Positions 35,688 through 47,293 of a stretch of DNA of 64,000 bases are shown here, in pieces (within the stretch, counting starts at the first letter, position 1; every line of letters begins with the position of its first letter). Source of the stretch: Zootoca vivipara. Taxonomy: Eukaryota. The DNA lies in NCBI RefSeq assembly GCF_963506605.1, contig NC_083281.1:14942001-15006000 (forward strand). The letters run 5' to 3'. The notes beneath the pieces were generated by a model. It was not told the DNA's origin. It saw nothing but the letters and a program-made list of their open reading frames with translations, and made no database searches. A program made the translations under genes and the position numbers.

Positions 35688-36989
35688 CTGTGGAGAGTGG
35701 CCGAGAGGTAAGACACCTTTGGGGACAGCCTTGTGAGTGAACCAGTGTCACAGAGTGTGGAATCTAGGCCAACTGTATTTGGTTAGGCCCTTGCGGTGCA
35801 ACAGAAGTGAAGTTGCCTGAACCATGTGTATTAATAAAACCTATAAACCGTGCTGTTTTATGTTGATTGGAAACTGAAATGTTTTAAAAATATTTTAAGG
35901 TCTTTTGGCGGGTGTTTTCTTGTGCTGAAAGCCATCTTGGTCTCCCTTTTGAGAGGATGAGTAGAATAAACTCCCACCGGCCTCATCCTGCATGGCCAAT
36001 GGTCAGGGATGAGGAGACACCTGAAGGGCAACAAGTTGGGGAAGGCTGTCCAGCACAGCCGAAGAGTAGTCAAAAACTGAGTGCCAGGAAACTCCCCCAG
36101 TGATGAGACACCTCAGAATGGGGAGTGTTCTTACCGCCCTTGGTCAGGACCACTGCACTATGTCTATTGGCATAGCAGTGTCTTTTAAACACAAGGACGT
36201 TTTCCAGGTAACAGGGGCCAAGGCTAAGCATATGTTTGCGACTCCCATTGGGATCATCAAGTCTCTTTCTGCTGCAGACTCAGCTGCCTCAACCTGGGGC
36301 TGAACTGGCAAGAGGTGTGTCTGTATTTACCGGTAACTCATACACACACAAATGTACAGGCCAGGCAAGTGCATCCTCCTGAGCTTCCTGGGCATGAGAA
36401 CATGGCAAGCCTGAAGAGAATGGGCATGTGTGCCATTTTACAAAGTCTGAGGGGGGAAATGGACTGCTCAAAGATACATGCACGTCTGAGGACTCCTTTT
36501 GCAGAATCCTCAAATCCCATGATCAGGGCTGGTGCTCAGCAGCTCTTTCTGAAATTTTGAATTACTGTAACAGCATTGTTTTGATGATTTCGTAAGAATT
36601 GTAGAGCAGGAAGGGACCACAAGGACCATCCAGTCCAACCCCCTGCAATGCAGGAGTCCTTTGCCCAACGTGGGGCTTGAACACACGACCCCGAGAGTCT
36701 CAGGCTCTACCGGTTTGCTCTATTTATAGGTTTCTGTGTTTGATATGACAGCGGCTGCAATGTGTTTAATGCTACGGTGATTGTGTGAGCCGCTCTGAGC
36801 TCAACATTTGCTGTTGGAAAAGCGGAATACAAATATTAAATCAAATCAAGCCAATTTGGTAGAACTGGGTTTTCTGCGGTTTGGGGACCGGCATTCATCT
36901 TTGAGACCAGTCTCTGACCCAGGAGGAGAAAACCGCGGTCCACCAAAGTGGCTGTCGAGTCCAGCCGCACCCTCTCCCTCCCAAGGTAC

Positions 36990-37232
36990 CTTTCATGCCG
37001 CTGCCCTCCTCTTGAAAGGTGTTTCGACTGCCAGAATGCTCCTCCGTCTGCTCGCTGCCTGATGAGGCCACGCTGCTCTGGGGCGAGAGGGGAGCATGCT
37101 CCCCGCCGGGGATGAAGGCTGGCCGGGCGCCCATCTCGTCCACGTTCATCCACTCGCTGGGGACCTGCTGGCTGGTGGGGATGAGGGACATGGAGCGCTT
37201 CAGCGGGCTGGGGTGGATTTGGCAGGGGAGAG
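36990..37232 (-). CDS. SAMD4B: SAMD4B coding exon 3
   Basis: [20 protein letters not shown]...[12 protein letters not shown]. Confidence 0.95.
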
Positions 37233-37856
37233 CTGGAAGGAGGAAGAGACGGTTAGGACCTGCCGACAATGGCCCCACACTTGGGCTGTGAAATCACCAG
37301 GAAGGCTTAAGCAGCTCAGGAGAGATTTCAGGACGAAGGAAAGTGTTACAAATTCTGAACCTGTCAAGTGGCTGTACTACCCAGAGTGTAGGTTTATTCG
37401 GTGAACCTGACCGGAAGGAAGTTTGAGCAGGAATACACCAAGAACCACCCATTCGTCTTCTGAGGTTCGGAGGGTGGCAACAGCTTTTCAGTGGTGGCTC
37501 CCCATTTGTGGAATGCTCTCCCCAGGGAAGCTCACCTGGCACCATCAATGTATATCGAGAACAATTCAAAGTGTTGGTGCTGACCTTTAAAGCCCTAAAT
37601 GGCTTCGGCCCTGTATATCAGAAGGAGCATCTCTACCCCATCATCCAGCCTGGACACTGAGGTGAGGTTACGGGGAACCAGGCAGAGGGCCTTCTTGGTG
37701 GTGGTGCCGCCCTGTGGAATGCCCTCCTGTCAGATGTCAGAGATAAACAACTATACGTCTTTCAGAAGACACCTGAAGGCAGACCTGTATAGGGAAGCTT
37801 TTAATGTCTGTTTTATTGTGTTTTCAGATCTGTTGGAAGCCACCCAGATGGGTCTG

Positions 37857-37903: not shown

Positions 37904-38036
37904 TATTCAGGCACCACGCAAATTCATTACTTTTTAACCAGGCCTTTTAACTGTCTATGGCCTTTTAGAGTAGGTGGAATGTTGTAATGTATTTTCTTTT
38001 CTGTTAAGTTGCTTTGAGTTGACATGGCAAAACAAC

Positions 38037-40122
38037 TTTGGGCTTCCGGGTTCAGCGCCAGCGTCGATCGGCGGGGTTTCGTCTCGTCTCCGAGACGGCC
38101 CGTCTCTGCTAGGAGTGGGGAGGGCAGCGAGAGCAACGCTGCGCCCCTTAGAACCTCGGGAAGGGCGTCCCGAGGGCAATTTGCTCGGCACAGACCCAAT
38201 CCGGACTCCCCAACTCTTCGGTTAGCTCTAATAAGAGCTCCGGAGCGAGGAGGGTAGAAGTCGCGGGGGCCATTTTGAGCGGCAACGTTATTCTAGCAGG
38301 GAGAAGCTTCAAGCCGAAGGCGGAGAGCGCTGGATTCTTCCGAAAATAAAACGATTGGAAAAGACTGTAAGTAACCTCACGATTTGGATTATAAAACAAT
38401 TTGGTCTGGGAGAGAGGGGAGAAAAGAGGAAGCCACCCCCCCCCCACGGCAACAAAGAGACAGTAAATAGAAACCCGAAGCCATAAACAGAAGATTTGTA
38501 ATTCAAAAGGATCCCTCAAAGGCATCAAAGAGAATATCCCCTTTGATGCAGGGTGAAAAGGGGAGAGAGACTGTGGTTTATGACTGCCCTGCAGCAATGA
38601 GGTAAAGCCTAAGAAAAACCTTTCTTTCCCTCGGGAGCCGGCAGCCCAGGCAATCCAGTGAGTTGATCAGGATTTATAAGTCAATTTTTACTTCACTTTG
38701 TATTTCTGGACTTTGTGGAATTTCTTTTTTGGCTTAAGTGCTTGTGAAATGTGAGTTCGAACTTTATTGTTAACAAGACTTGAAGAATGCAGCCAGCTTG
38801 TTAAAATGGAGTCGAGAAAATAAACTGTGATCATATTCCACCCCACGTGATAAGTTTTGACCTTGGCAGGACTGAAATATGTCAACAAAAAAGTGTTCCC
38901 CTGAGTTCCAGCGGTCTGTTTTGACCTTAATGTGGGAAACAAGAATAGAGTTATGTCAAGAGGAGACACGACGACAGGAGTTACAGCAGAAATTTCAGGA
39001 GGTGATGGCGGAATATGATTTTCTAGGAGATGAAGCTTTTGACACTGAAAAAGAGCAATGTGAGAATGACAATGATGGGGAAGGAAAAGATGAAGATGAG
39101 GACTGTGATGATTCAACACAAAATGAAACACACCATGAAAAAAATGATGACTCTACTCTACAAAAAGTTGGATGGAGTGCCCTGCCTTTGAGGGGGGCAC
39201 GATTGGTATTATTGGAACTCCAGAACGCCCACAGGGAAGAAGGAAAAAATATGCAGAGAAGAGAAGAAATTCAGGGGTCCTGTATGGTGACCTGGATGGC
39301 AAGAGACTGTAAACAGGGGGTGGGGTGAAGGGAAAGTGATGTTGTGATTATAAGGATGGATTAACAGGTTTATAACTGGTCTGCTGATTTTGGAATTTGC
39401 TGGATTGGGGGGGGTGGAGCCGGTAATCGGGGATGTAAGGTTAAATTGAGAATAGTTATAGTTTTAAAAGTGAATGGATTTTGGAAAATGTGAAAATATG
39501 GAGGCTTATAGAGGGAGAAAAAAAAATTAGGCACGGGAAGAGAAAATGGGAGTTTGAATTTTCAGTGATTTGAATATTAGATGAAAATGTTAACAATTGA
39601 TTTATAAGTTGTATAAGATACAAAGGTGTATTTTTATAAAGTAAGAAACTGTTGCAGATGATAAAAAAGGGATGAAAACCGGGGAAGGGGGGGGAGGGGA
39701 AGCCCATAAAATATGGTTTTTCAACTATGAATGCAAGAAAAAATTTTCTGTTTTGTATTGTTTTTTTCTTTTTCTTTTTTTTCTTCGCCCTTTCTTTTTC
39801 CCCTTTTTTTCCTATTTCTATTTTTCTCTTTTTTTGGTATAACAATAGATGGTTGGATGGATGTCCTCCTGCGTACTGCCCTGGTTTGCTGGAGCTCCCT
39901 GGTGGCAGGGGGGGGCTTTGGGGTCAGGGGAGGGGGAGGAGGACAGAAATCCAAGCATAAAATGGACCATTTCTGACTGTTCACAAACATGGGATACTTC
40001 TGTGGCAGGGGAGGACCCATGTGGGTGGGTAGGAAGGAGGTGGAAAAGGGGTTTAAGTATGTACCGTTTTTTTGTTTTTTTGTATTTTGTAAAATTAATA
40101 AAAAGTATGTTAAAAAAAAAAA
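38037..40122 (+). mobile_element. complete non-autonomous L1-mobilised retroelement (HAL1-like), antisense within a SAMD4B intron
   Basis: 16-bp TSD GACATGGCAAAACAAC at 38021-38036 and 40123-40138; CpG-rich 5' end GGGCTTCCGGG; YY1 motif at 38269-38277; ORF 38879-39328; G-rich 3'UTR; AATAAA at 40097-40102; poly(A) at 40112-40122; no RT/endonuclease ORF. Confidence 0.85.
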
Positions 40123-40790
40123 GACATGGCAAAACAACGACTAATACATTCAACTTCAACTTCAACTTCAACTTCAACAACAACAACAACATTCAGGCAA
40201 AGAACTGGAACAACCCAACTGGCTGACTAGGGCTCAAGGATCACCCGATCAAAGAAGTTTCACATAGTCCTTTGCAGTGTCTACAAATCTGAAATGTTTT
40301 CTTAGTTTCTGGCATGAGGATAGGAAAGCAAGACGCAGCCCGAGATATCAACAGACTGGTTCCCCCCCCCCCCCCAGAGATGAGAGCTCCCTCTGGCTCG
40401 AGATAGATAGCTCAGTTTATTTCCAAGCCATTTCACCAAAAATTGGGAAACGCTTTGGTTAATTTCCAAGCTAATCAGAACTGGTTAACTCCTTCCAGGG
40501 TCAACCTTTTAGAGCAGCAGAGATAATTATTTCAGAAAGGCTGCTCCTGAGGAAACTGATGCGGTGGGGCAAGAACCTACCTTAGTGAATTGGGAAGGTC
40601 TTCTATGTCCCAAGACATAGATTTTAGATTTTAATTTTTTTTGCAGAAGGACCTAGGGGAGCAAGCGAGAGGGTCAACCCATTTGAGGATCCCCTCCTCC
40701 CTGCAGGAAAACACCCCCACCTTCACCCTCCCAAGCAAGATGGCGCCTGTTTCACAGACCCTCCTCATCCCTCCGCCCTGCCTTCCACAC

Positions 40791-41273
40791 CTGTGTTTGC
40801 GTTGCTCCCGATACTGTTGATGGCCGACGGCACAGAGCCAGAGGAATGGAAGGACATGTGCCCATTTTCCCGTGGTGGCTTCTCCTGCCAGCCGTGCCCC
40901 AGGTCTCCGAGGCCCGTGTCTACGGGGCCCTGCCACTCGTCCGAGCCCTGGCGCGAGTGGTAGGCCGTGTCGGGCCGCCCCCTGCTCTGGCCGGAGTAGC
41001 CGCTGGAGAGGCGTTCCTCGAGGTGGTTGAGCCACAGGGCCAGGGAGTTGCGGTCGTCAAGCGTGGTGGCCGGGTGGATGAGGGCATAGGAGAGGAGCTG
41101 CCGGCTCTCCTCGATGAAGAGGTTGCTCTCGATGGAGTAGGCCAGCACCTTCTGCAAGAGCTTCATGTACTCGGACTTGGCATCTGTGTTGCCAGGCTGG
41201 AGGAGAGGCAGGTGGGAGAGGAGCAGGGAGACTACTTTATCCTTGGGCTCTTGGTGCCACTGACTGATGACAG
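40791..41273 (-). CDS. SAMD4B: SAMD4B coding exon 2
   Basis: [25 protein letters not shown]...[12 protein letters not shown]. Confidence 0.95.
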
Positions 41274-41429
41274 CTGTTGGGGTAAGAGAGAGAGGGGCAA
41301 GTCAAGAGAATATCTTCTGGTGCTGCTGGGGATGACTGATTGATTTCAGTTGATTTGATTGACATCCTATGCCCTCTTAAAATGTTTGGGGGAGGGGTTA
41401 TTGCTGTTTTTATTTTGATTATGTGCTTT

Positions 41430-42010
41430 CTTCCATTTTATTTATTAATACTTTTCAAGCTTATACATTTTGCTAGTTTTTTACATTTCACTAATTTTGA
41501 CATTTCAAAACTTGACTTCCATCCCCCTCTTTCTGCGGTTCCTTAAACTTGTTTTTAGTATCTTCTGCATATCCAAATTAACTTAATTTACTCATTTATT
41601 CATCTTCTTTAAATATATACTGTTATAAAATTGCAGGTTGTTACAATAATCCTTCAATGTTTTTATCTGTTTCTAATTTATCTGAAATATTCAATAAACC
41701 ATTTCCATTATTTTATTTAAAAAATGTTATCTTGATTTTCCGGTAACTTTCGCCATTTCTGCATATTCCATAAGTTTTTGCATCCATTCTTTCTTTACTG
41801 GGACTTCTGCTTCTTTCCATTTTTGGGCAAGTAACATTCTTGCCGCTTTAGTCACATACATGAATAAGTTTCTGCAAGTTTCTATGGTTTCTATACATTT
41901 TAGGTAGTTCTGTCCCTATAATTCTCAAAAGAAAAGCTTCTGGTTGTTTTTTTTACAAAGGTTATTTTAAACATCCTTTTCATTTCATTATATATCATTT
42001 CCTAGAAATG
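41430..42010 (-). mobile_element. L1 LINE 3' fragment
   Basis: Minus strand encodes a degenerate ..IYNEMKRMFKITF..PEAFLL..LFMY..AARMLLAQKWK..EWMQKLMEYAEMAK (lizard L1 ORF2 C-terminus) plus a 3'UTR. Confidence 0.75.
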
Positions 42011-43770: not shown

Positions 43771-45277
43771 GTGTGGACAGAGATGCCGTTCCACAGAACA
43801 GGAGCAGCTACAGTAAAAGCCCTGCTCTCAGTTACTTCAGAGCAGGCTTCCGAGATTTTCAGAACTTGCAGGTGAAAACTCTCCTGCAGACAAAAGCAGT
43901 CTCTTCTTAGGACCACCTTCCCCAAGGTGAAGCCCTACAAATGTTTCCGACTACAGCTCCCAGCAGCCACCTAGCTGGGGCCGCTGGGAGCTGTAGTCCA
44001 AAGCATCTGCAGGGCTTTATCTTGGGTACAGGGGGGGGGAAAGGTTGATTGAGGGTGCTCAAGGTTGACTGAGGGTACTCCGAATTGTCTCCTGGCTTTA
44101 TGTCAGCAGCCTCTGAAAGAGATTCAGTGAATTCAACCTCATTTCTCCCTTTTGCCTTAATCTTGGGCAACACTATTACTAGAGAGCTGTAGGAGTTGCA
44201 TTTCGCCTCACAGATAAAAGGGAGAGGCTTCTGTGTGTTAGTTGCAAGGGTGGGGGTGAAGGGGGTACACGTGCTTGGGGAATGGAGCTTAACTGAGTGG
44301 CATGGAGTTCTCACAGCTTAGCAAGATCCGGCTGAACTTGTGAGGACACTTGGTCCTTATCAAGCGTTCGGCAAGAGGAGGCAGATGCCACAGGCTGATC
44401 ACCCCCAAAGTGCTTGCATATACACTCCTAATCTGCAAATTAACCGAGATTAGTTATAGGAGGTCTACTTTTCCTCAGTATTCAGTCACGAGTAAACTGA
44501 GGGGGGGGGGCTCCTTGACCCATTTGCAATTTTAGTGTGAATCAGGAAGAACGTGCATTTGCAAACATGTGTACCAGGGAGGCCCACTCACAGAGCCAGA
44601 ATTAGCTGCAGCTAAACCATATGCTCTGGGCAAATGCAGGTCCTCTATCTATCACAGTGTGCGAAGTGGTGCGAGGGGATGAATCACAGAGTTTCATGAA
44701 TAAGGAATGGAAACATAATTTTATCTTCTTCTTTAATATCAGAATGCCGAGTCACCCAATAAAAAGTGACTGAGAAGTACTTTTAGCACACAATTAATCT
44801 ATGGAATTTGCTGCTTCAAAACAGCCATTAGCCATGGGGAATTTTCTGAAGAATTGGACCTCTTCTTTGTAAATCTGCTTAACAGCAGCTATGAGTCACA
44901 ACACAGCTAACTGGAGCCATGCTCACAGGAATACCAGGTGATCAGTGTTCGAAATTAGCCAGGCGCCAGGCGCGTTTTGTGACAGGTAACCAACCTTTCA
45001 CGAGGAAGTAGAGATGCCTGGACACCTGGTTTAGTGCGTAACATCACCATCTGGCTGGCAACACCTTTCTTCATCATTCTGCCCCTCAATCATTTTGGTT
45101 GCCCTTTTCTGTACCTTTTCCAACTCTACAAAACCCTTTTGGAGGTGAGCGACCAGAGCGTGCCTAACCCAATTAAGGACCCGTGGCAATATTGCCACGT
45201 AAGCAGGTGGTCTGAATCCATTCTGACTGTGAGGATGTTAGGTGTAAGCTCCAGAGGGGAAAAAAGAGCTGACTTAC

Positions 45278-45473
45278 CCGCACTGTTGGCCTCTGACTCC
45301 AGAACGTGGATCTCTGTGCAATCTGCCAACGAGTGCTCCAGGCACAGCTGCAGAAAGCGGGCTTGAGTGCGAGAGATACGCTTGAGGAGAGACAGCAGGG
45401 CCACCGTCTGCTCACATTCATTCCAACCTTTGAACCAGCCAGCAAGGATGCCCACCTGGTCCCGGAACATCAT
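45278..45473 (-). CDS. SAMD4B: SAMD4B coding exon 1 (exon extends as 5'UTR to 45734)
   Basis: GCCACC-ATG; [32 protein letters not shown]...LESEANSA; donor gtaagt. Confidence 0.96.
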
Positions 45474-47293
45474 GGTGGCTGGCACCTCAGGCTCGGCGGC
45501 AACTCACCCACAATGGGGTCAAGAAAGCACCAGGGTTTGGGGTGGGGTGGGGGAAGGACCCCTCACATGGTTTCAACCTCAAGTCTGGAGGCTCGGCAGA
45601 AGGCCACAAACCAGAACACCGACTTTCCCGTTAGCAGAGAAGCAGAATGGCATGGAAAGGGAGTCTTTGCTGTTCCGAAGATCTTTGGGTTCTTTGGGGA
45701 TTATTCCACTTCAGCAGGATGTCTCAGTACCCCCCTGTAAGAGAGAATGAGAGTCAAGGATGAGGATATTTGCATCCCTCCATATTTGTCTGCACCCTAC
45801 AAAATTATGCTGGGCAAACAGAACCCCATACAATCTGCTGCTTTCAAAAACTCCCGTCTATCAACACAGTGTGGTAACAATGGAACACCCAGGCCCATTT
45901 GCATTTGTTTTTAAAATGATACTTTTTAATTATTGTGAAAGGCTCCCTGAGAATATTTATATTGAAGGATGGCATAGTAGTTGGTTAAAAAATAATAATA
46001 CTGACTCAAGGAAATGTTAGACCTGCGTATGGTGGACCAGAGTTCAAATTCAGACGTGTCTCTGGGAGGCAGAGTCCAGGAGCAACTGATTTGGACAGGT
46101 CACACAAGGCTCAACATTTTGAACTTCAAAATGCAGTGTGATGACCACGGCAAACTCAAAAAGTGTGGAGCCCCTTTCACAGAAGTGCAGAGTTGGAAGG
46201 TACCCCAAGGGTCATCTAGCCCAACCCCCTGCAATGCAGGAATTACGGCTTTAGAATCGCTTCTTGCACCCTTCTAATCCAGGAATGCCAACCTAGGCCA
46301 CAATCACAAAGCATTTGCTTCGGTTTGACTGGGGCACTTTTCACCCCTGTACTGCTCTTGCCCAGAGAAGAGCTTTTGGAGACCTCTGAGCAGGGACTGG
46401 CACACCAGTTAAGTCAAGGTTGGCACTGGCCAAGGATACACAGCTGTCTTTGAAGGCAACAAAGGGAAAGCCAAACAATAGTAGCCCCTCACGCCCAACC
46501 ACTTGGGCACACTAACCCTATAGTAATGATGCCTCTCCCATTTCATTCCCTTGGTACCATGGAAGTTTAAACTCGAAGATCTTCAGAGCAGAGACCCCCT
46601 CCCCCATCATTCTTGCTCACGTGAAGTACTATATACTGTATATTCCTGCGTATAAGACTACTTTTTAACCCAGGGAAATCTTCTCAAAAGTTGGGGGTCG
46701 TCTTATACGCTGGGTCGTATTTCTTACACGGCGAGTATATCCCAAACTCTATATTTTAACTGGAAAAGTTGGGGGTCGTCTTATACGCCCAGTCGTCTTA
46801 TATGCCGGAATATACGTATACTTTGATGATACTGCAGGAGCCATACAACTTGAACAGCACCTGAAAGTGACTTGGCCCAAAGGCCTTGAAAGGAGTCAGA
46901 AGCAAGATGAAAAACATGGGTTACCTCAAAGACACATGTAACTCCCACCCCCCACCAAAACCCCTCACCTATTACATAACTGAATGCCTGGGAATACAAA
47001 AGAATGCCAGTGTTGCTGGATAAAAGCTCCGTTAGTAGACTCCTCCTGCTTATCAGTGCAGAGGAAAGAACCAATTACAGATTATCTGCCTTTTGAATGA
47101 TAAAAAGGACAAGCACAAAAATCCAAGGAATTTCCTAAAAACTAACTGGCATGAACACAAAATACTGTATCCACGCGCACAGCACAGCTTTCCCCACTGT
47201 CTGGGCTCTGCCTCGGGTTTAAACAGCTGTGAACTCTTTGACAGAGAAGCCTGTTTCTATTAAAGCCCTTATATAAAGAGAGAGCATCTGTCT

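Follow-up and report, generated by a model that had tools for sequence, protein, structure and literature searches.

We analysed a 64,000-nt stretch of the Zootoca vivipara genome (NC_083281.1, positions 14,942,001 to 15,006,000 of the forward strand; hereafter, the window) and found that a 2.1-kb retroelement inserted at 38021..40138 belongs to a multi-copy non-autonomous family that is active and has recently been inserting, and of which it is a young and polymorphic copy. Several lineages related to this element, some of them still inserting, carry a short protein that is under selection and unlike anything detectable. An earlier reading of the window from its letters alone (the original prediction) had proposed a lizard family of L1-mobilised elements with a reduced or novel protein. 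The family idea stood: the element proved to be multi-copy, L1-type and non-autonomous, with a conserved, apparently orphan open reading frame (ORF), and this design is common to at least three deep lineages, its own included. On balance, if only slightly so, we consider it probable that this young family is copied by the ORF2p of L1 and that its peptide acts as a short-lived adaptor in cis.

The direct evidence for a family comes from searches of the whole genome (1.44 Gb, 48 contigs). With the entire element as query, the best 40 of 1566 candidates were all full length, at 99–100% identity, and exact-pattern counts gave 395 5' ends and 560 3' ends genome-wide (0 for the reversed controls). 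A private target-site duplication (TSD) of 11–19 bp was found in 29 of the 30 closest copies, a set chosen for closeness whose mean pairwise difference is 0.24%; of another 20 copies, 18 have a TSD of at least 13 bp. On contigs C1–C2, 60 of 61 5' ends have a downstream 3' end, 57 of them at 1.8–2.25 kb, and 94 3' ends are present vs 61 5' ends. Three longer family copies contain inserts; one of them, a 5.3-kb copy considered as a possible autonomous version, turned out to be a nested insertion with an antisense RTE inside. The marks of L1-mobilised insertion are present, namely poly(A), variable 10–20-bp TSDs and some 5'-truncated copies. Finally, two other samples from two studies (runs X7 and X8) have the empty site: their contigs contain the target once, the joint running from 38036 to 40161. 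The suggestion of a young insertion was thereby borne out, and shared ends with distinct TSDs and an empty site elsewhere, both named originally as checks, were found.

The same data bear on the two alternatives that the original prediction had set against itself, a one-off internal deletion of an autonomous L1 and a processed pseudogene of a host gene. Poly(A), a TSD and the lack of a reverse transcriptase (RT) also mark processed pseudogenes, but both alternatives are hardly conceivable in view of hundreds of copies with shared ends, nested subfamilies and private TSDs. Moreover, the element has no extended match to the 39 L1 loci described below and no homologue among host proteins or in databases; in our protein searches of the species' own genome, all 150 scored matches in each were element copies.

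The subfamilies are nested as a ladder, all of them 2.0–2.1 kb long with one layout: subfamilies A/B are 93–100% identical to the element, C about 83%, D/E 74–85%, and F has a protein identity of about 44–50%. Subfamilies exchange segments. In subfamily C (L151–L180; 204 matches to its motif), the first ~360 nt differ, having been swapped or rewritten, and begin with CTTCCGGTTGACC, with donor position, ORF and 3' end kept. One family copy contains a near-intact antisense RTE with a 1036-codon frame (L335:852-4080); this RTE, which we take to be Bov-B-like, was recently active and is 98.9% identical to L120.

The element unit between the TSDs in the window is 2086 bp long (38037..40122), and all of its features lie on the forward strand. 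The two 16-bp TSDs (GACATGGCAAAACAAC, 38021..38036 and 40123..40138) are 100% identical, as originally described. The 5' TSD is followed by additional bases TTT-GGG (38037..38042) ahead of CTTCCGG (TTT-GGG-CTTCCGG spans 38037-38049). Variable, G-rich 5' additions occur on most family copies and, going by what is generally known of L1, probably reflect cap copying or untemplated addition. The CpG-island 5' region, which starts with CTTCCGG (38043..38440), probably acts as an internal RNA polymerase II (Pol II) promoter: the first 400 nt of the element have a GC content of 51–64% and a CpG observed/expected ratio of about 1.0, in keeping with the CpG-rich 5' end first reported. The YY1 site placed there was found as a motif (GCCATTTT, 38269..38276, a putative site), which is also present in sister lineage G, but it lies at +229 from the element start, whereas mammalian L1 has it at the extreme 5' end. 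A candidate retained intron of 503 nt in the 5' untranslated region (UTR) extends over 38367..38869 (GTAAGT donor at 38367, CAG acceptor at 38867-38869). The 149-aa orphan ORF (38879..39328) is, as predicted, the longest sense frame of the element. The 3' UTR begins with an AT-rich part (39329..39835), ending with a G-rich motif and a U-rich tract (39743-39835), and continues with a module of two long predicted hairpins (39836..40046) capped by GUGGCAG (39902-39908 and 40002-40008). The poly(A) signal and A11 tail at 40097..40122 were located as announced (AATAAA 40097-40102, A11 40112-40122). The 3' UTR had been called G-rich, which holds for its last ~250 nt only, the remainder being mostly AT-rich. 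A TAG just ahead of the hairpin module, after the U-rich tract (39743-39848), could be a second splice acceptor; no splice joint at this TAG was present among the reads.

We then compared the element with L1s of the same genome. Consistent with the absence of endonuclease and RT motifs noted at the outset, tblastn with five lizard L1 ORF2p gave 0 matches at E≤1, and none of the 61 5' ends checked on contigs C1–C2 headed an autonomous version. A 327-codon frame in lineage H, considered as an autonomous form, was a nested insertion. Of 40 loci with long RT frames that were fetched, 39 were L1s (chosen by RT score, all of the long-5'-UTR type); they represent about a dozen lineages, are 6.3–7.0 kb long when complete and have TSDs of 12–19 bp. 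About a dozen L1 lineages with intact ORF1 and ORF2 coexist in this genome (L081–L119), with an ORF1p that the Pfam L1 models do not recognise. By BLAST, the DNA identity between the element and these 39 loci is confined to simple U-rich sequence and no more than about 56 terminal nt. A profile built from the 5' ends of 13 family members, however, matched the 5' UTRs of 3 of 9 L1s (L104, E 3.9e-8 over 1-395; L085, 8e-5; L091, 2e-3), vs E≥0.96 for reversed and complemented controls, and the A–E 5' profile alone matched the L104 5' UTR at an E of about 1e-5. The CTTCCGG start is also the consensus start of lizard clade-1 L1s (PMC5381506, in part). As judged from these comparisons, the first 400 nt of the family are derived from L1 and are distantly homologous to intact L1s of the genome. 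The insertion marks, together with the presence of intact L1s, indicate that the family is probably copied in trans by their ORF2p. Two other identities were rejected: a SINE (no Rfam match better than E 0.12, an L1-like head and a selected ORF) and an L1 5' UTR with an upstream ORF (no such ORF in nine L1 5' UTRs). The L1 5' UTRs themselves may undergo splicing, to go by their motifs: a donor-like GGTAAR is present at +261-276 in seven of nine L1 families. Two intact L1 lineages (L091:1628-3246 and L104:1223-3218) have 5' UTRs of 1.6–2.0 kb with a long polypyrimidine tract and a CAG just before the ORF1 start.

When 30 copies were selected by their 5' end only, the ORF proved intact in 27 (two were broken and one was out of reach), and its start and stop are the same in subfamilies down to about 44–50% amino-acid identity. 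A codon model applied to 77 unique intact coding sequences, 15 broken copies being excluded, gave a dN/dS ratio (omega) of 0.586, with a likelihood-ratio statistic (LRT) of 23.0 against 1; the other frames of the region gave 1.32, 0.84, 1.98, 0.89 and 1.04, with 161–1174 stops masked. For 27 representatives including subfamily F, omega was 0.516 (LRT 29.8) and ranged from 0.47 to 0.55 in each third. Among 49 full-length copies, indels shared by lineages were in frame in 5 of 5 cases in the ORF (all in the triplet-rich acidic tract, with no shared indel elsewhere in the frame), whereas only 20 of 126 were so in the UTRs; the length of the ORF was a multiple of three in 46 copies vs 18–22 for six equal-length UTR windows. 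The dN/dS check suggested originally thus yields an omega of about 0.5, significantly below 1, and the data argue for purifying selection on both frame and codons that is real but moderate.

Selection might bear on translation rather than on the protein: an open frame would keep the RNA stable and ribosome-bound and thereby catch nascent ORF2p. We judge this distinctly unlikely, and equally so its corollary that the peptide is disposable, its C-terminal glycine leading to degradation. The frame is indeed kept much more strongly than the codons, omega is uniform at about 0.5, the chain is mostly predicted to be disordered and the lineages share little beyond both ends. By contrast, each third of the ORF has an omega significantly below 1, and an FQ-x-x-[VL]L helix recurs where the coding DNA no longer aligns. 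It is highly improbable that the protein acts in trans, whether as an anti-silencing factor for the element promoter or as a competitor drawing L1 proteins from L1 RNA. A helix plus an acidic tract would resemble small activators or nucleic-acid mimics, and truncated ORF1p suppresses L1 in trans (PMC5605252, in part), but ORF-less subfamilies would then be expected: none was seen among copies picked by 5' end alone, and the master lineages keep the frame.

The predicted protein is an orphan without detected relatives. Pfam gave no family match (best E 0.098), although this blank is uninformative for ORF1 because Transposase_22, which is empty in this genome, fails to detect even genuine lizard ORF1p. 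No match was found in a set of 5.8 billion proteins, whether at near lengths, at longer ones or with an alignment of 12 sequences, nor among 1.84 billion representative proteins (0 matches), and Foldseek returned 0 matches in the PDB with a low-confidence model as query. This model (pTM 0.27) has one confident helix at residues 8-52 and a weak one at 104-145; the tract in between, 53-103, is predicted to be disordered and is acidic (18 D/E of 51). It thus agrees with the order first read by eye, a helical stretch followed by an acidic tract. The C-terminus is KQGVG-stop. A complex predicted for the N-terminal 60 aa and two copies of L1 ORF1p 20-300 had a score of 0.01.

Could the ORF be a very old HAL1, that is, a remnant of L1 ORF1p with a coiled-coil start and an acidic tail that co-assembles with ORF1p trimers? 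Several features would fit. The 5' UTR appears L1-derived and the ORF occupies the place of ORF1, about 830 nt in; lizard ORF1p likewise starts with a helix and ends acidic; and by eye LELILDVRDEL of lineage H resembles LRELILSLKSDI of ORF1p. The Pfam ORF1 models fail on true lizard ORF1p too, and N-terminal and coiled-coil fragments of human ORF1p work in trans (PMC5605252, in part). Against it, the element had a best E of 0.09 vs 27 lizard ORF1p, and three lineage profiles compared with 11–27 lizard ORF1p (from the 39 sampled L1 copies) gave HHalign E values of 0.11–0.33 and hidden Markov model (HMM) scores in the range of the reversed and heptad-shuffled controls. The absence of an ORF1 RNA-recognition motif (RRM), noted originally, extends to the C-terminal domain (CTD), and a direct link to L1 ORF1p found no support in the profile tests, whose scores stay at control level. 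We consider this origin unlikely without its being far-fetched.

Two sister lineages turned up in flanking sequence. Lineage G (L257:1380-3446, minus strand; also L203 and L266–L295) is about 2.1 kb long, starts with CATTCCGG, has its donor at +325 and encodes 141–153 aa beginning with MKTKLSRAFQETVL; at least 150 copies were scored of 1375 candidates, and its C-terminus varies through slippage in a G run. Lineage H (L263:3214-7200; L296–L334) is about 2 kb long, with a DFQK-x-LLE helix, an ORF ending in RVGVG and no hairpin module. It is older, and most of its 133 matches at E≤1 are decayed; the L263 copy has a copy of family F nested inside it. At C15 32.38-32.42 Mb (L334), several identical lineage-H matches follow one another with a spacing of about 4.2 kb, which suggests a tandem array containing a lineage-H copy.

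The 5' UTRs of G and H matched the A–E profile at E values of 5e-13 to 5e-38 in five of the seven tested, and none did in the reversed control. The true 3' end of lineage H, used as a profile, matched 1280-1768 of the element (E 2.5e-9); since it aligns upstream of the hairpin module, this module is a later addition. At the protein level, the N-terminal FQ-x-x-[VL]L helix motif is common to all three lineages, although their coding DNA has diverged beyond alignment, and HHalign E values were about 0.002 for A–H and A–G (over short N-terminal stretches) and 0.025 for G–H. The lineage proteins also share an acidic middle and an [RK]-x-G-[VI]-G C-terminus. By all these resemblances, they represent at least three deep lineages of one superfamily.

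All three deep lineages keep the C-terminal G-[VI]-G-stop, although the codons and stops that encode it differ; the C-termini read KQGVG, KKGVG, RMGVG, RVGVG and RVGIG. Ligases of the KLHDC family bind a terminal Gly, their consensus being a penultimate G, R/K/Q or W/A/P, or an upstream Arg (PMC11568203, in part); an RxxxG degron is described in PMC12922316 (in part). A terminal Gly with R/K at −5 occurs in three lineages, the penultimate residue being Val or Ile.

At the RNA level, all 82 copies of A–G that were examined have a GTRAGT donor, placed between +300 and +329. Six upstream ATGs all lie inside the candidate intron, and the CAG acceptor is 9 nt before the start. The last 290 nt of the element fold much more stably than shuffled sequences (z −6.6; 0 of 200 shuffles), and the hairpin pairs are kept in 97.7% of cells across 21 sequences. 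Lineage G has four GUGGCAG hairpins on other stems and lineage H none. GTGGCAG near L1 3' ends was rejected as a shared hairpin, being ORF2 coding sequence. Read cover of the element is thin; in run X23 the reads are mostly first-mate-minus over the first 1.5 kb.

Our preferred account, the cis adaptor, would run as follows. The L1-derived CpG promoter would give rise to a capped, polyadenylated 2.1-kb RNA. Translation would become possible once the six upstream ATGs are bypassed, either because the 503-nt 5'-UTR intron is spliced out or by leaky scanning. The N-terminal helix, together with the acidic tract, would make contact with L1 proteins or with a host factor, and the GUGGCAG hairpins by the poly(A) would provide the RNA docking site. 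The conserved terminal glycine motif would serve as a C-degron: protein left unbound would be degraded, which would reserve the benefit for the element, and L1 ORF2p would then copy the RNA of the element. A broader proposal is that a long-lived superfamily of vertebrate L1 parasites replaced all L1 genes with an adaptor of its own, spliced to be translated and limited by a degron, which together with the hairpins captures L1 in cis; we regard this as tentative and rather doubtful. If true, it would make the superfamily a coding counterpart of Alu's hijack, distinct from HAL1.

Several observations weigh against the cis adaptor. The synthesis, partner and function of the protein are what we infer, and what the element shares with any L1 by BLAST is confined to some 56 terminal nt at roughly 80%. 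Splicing is challenged by the loss of the acceptor AG in F and L230 (it is not evident in G either), by the lack of spliced reads among 313 and 246 aligned reads (taken from roughly 6% of two RNA runs), and by the fact that no spliced genomic copy was seen. Reads near the 3' end are mostly in the opposite orientation, at low depth and mainly from other subfamilies. As for the hairpins, they show weak covariation (3 of 53 pairs, a level also reached by 51 of 500 shuffles), lineage H moved without them, and none with GUGGCAG was found in the sampled L1 3' UTRs. The penultimate Val is outside the listed KLHDC consensus (PMC11568203, in part), and many copies of lineage G have a frameshifted C-terminus in which GVG is lost. 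Selection on the protein is also open to criticism: an omega of about 0.5, flat along the protein, denotes weak constraint, and internal and terminal branches are alike (N/S 124/89 vs 124/72, p=0.31). The in-frame indel count is weakened because slippage in the acidic tract goes in threes anyway, the tree is violated because subfamilies exchange segments, and the older subfamilies were partly gathered by protein similarity.

How does the family compare with known systems? HAL1 of mammals was reportedly described by Smit in 1999 and by Bao and Jurka in 2010. HAL1 is a non-autonomous L1 derivative coding only for ORF1p (PMC5753468, in part). The element resembles it in being non-autonomous, with an apparently L1-derived 5' end, one ORF, poly(A), L1-type TSDs and a presumed dependence on ORF2p. 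It differs in that the ORF1p of HAL1 is recognisable, whereas the element ORF is under half that length, without RRM or CTD, and in its hairpin module and lizard host. It thus has the L1-derived 5' region and lacks ORF2, as HAL1 does, and we set it apart from HAL1 because it shows no measurable similarity to the co-resident L1 ORF1p. HeT-A (Jockey clade) and Ag-Sponge (CR1 clade) are coding non-autonomous long interspersed nuclear elements (LINEs) thought to multimerise with partner proteins (PMC5786205, in part). They too are coding passengers that depend on an autonomous LINE and make a protein believed to aid their own mobilisation, but they belong to other LINE clades and carry the partner's ORF1p/Gag, vs an orphan protein and dispersed insertion here. 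With lizard clade-1 L1s the element has in common the CTTCCGG start and the long CpG-rich 5' UTR (PMC5381506, in part, and our 39 loci), as well as a U-rich 3' UTR, AATAAA, poly(A), TSDs of 12–19 bp and a GGTAAR donor-like site; these L1s differ in length (6.3–7.0 kb), in having an ORF1 of 320–390 aa and an ORF2 of about 1250 aa, and in the lack of extended DNA identity. The element is probably L1-mobilised like SVA/LAVA and Alu, and like SVA would be a Pol II passenger, but it keeps a selected ORF. SVA/LAVA and Alu are non-coding, and their structured RNA is thought to aid capture of ORF2p; SVA is transcribed by Pol II. Known coding non-autonomous LINEs carry their partner's ORF1p, and the orphan selected ORF sets this family apart.

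No description of such a lizard family was found in searches of the literature, although an entry in Repbase or Dfam may exist. Homology-based annotation would miss the family or leave it unclassified. With hundreds of full-length CpG-island promoters, it is a large source of structural variation, both recent and polymorphic, in this lizard, and it offers a compact test system for how passenger RNAs beat the cis preference of L1.

Exon-like frames of the host gene, which is read from the minus strand, are found at 45129-45503 (with a Vts1-like domain), 40634-41301 and 36898-37293. Because these frames flank the insert on the minus strand, the insert is intronic and antisense in a Vts1/SAMD4-type gene. 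The claim that it is antisense to SAMD4B holds in this respect; the name SAMD4B, rather than A, is our assumption. The antisense transcription into this gene that was first suggested is hypothetical; read depth over the host-gene exons was 0 in the RNA run. A link between the SAMD4-type host and the hairpins through Smaug was rejected: the GUGGCAG loops do not match the consensus of the Smaug CNGG element, and the host is therefore taken as a coincidence. The assembly continues after the 3' TSD with a simple repeat of TTCAAC/CAA (40139-40191); in the empty alleles of runs X7 and X8, ten other letters replace 40139-40160. Lizard L1 sequence elsewhere in the window, mentioned in the original prediction, was found again as a decayed C-terminal fragment of L1 ORF2 in the same host gene (41730-42010, minus strand).

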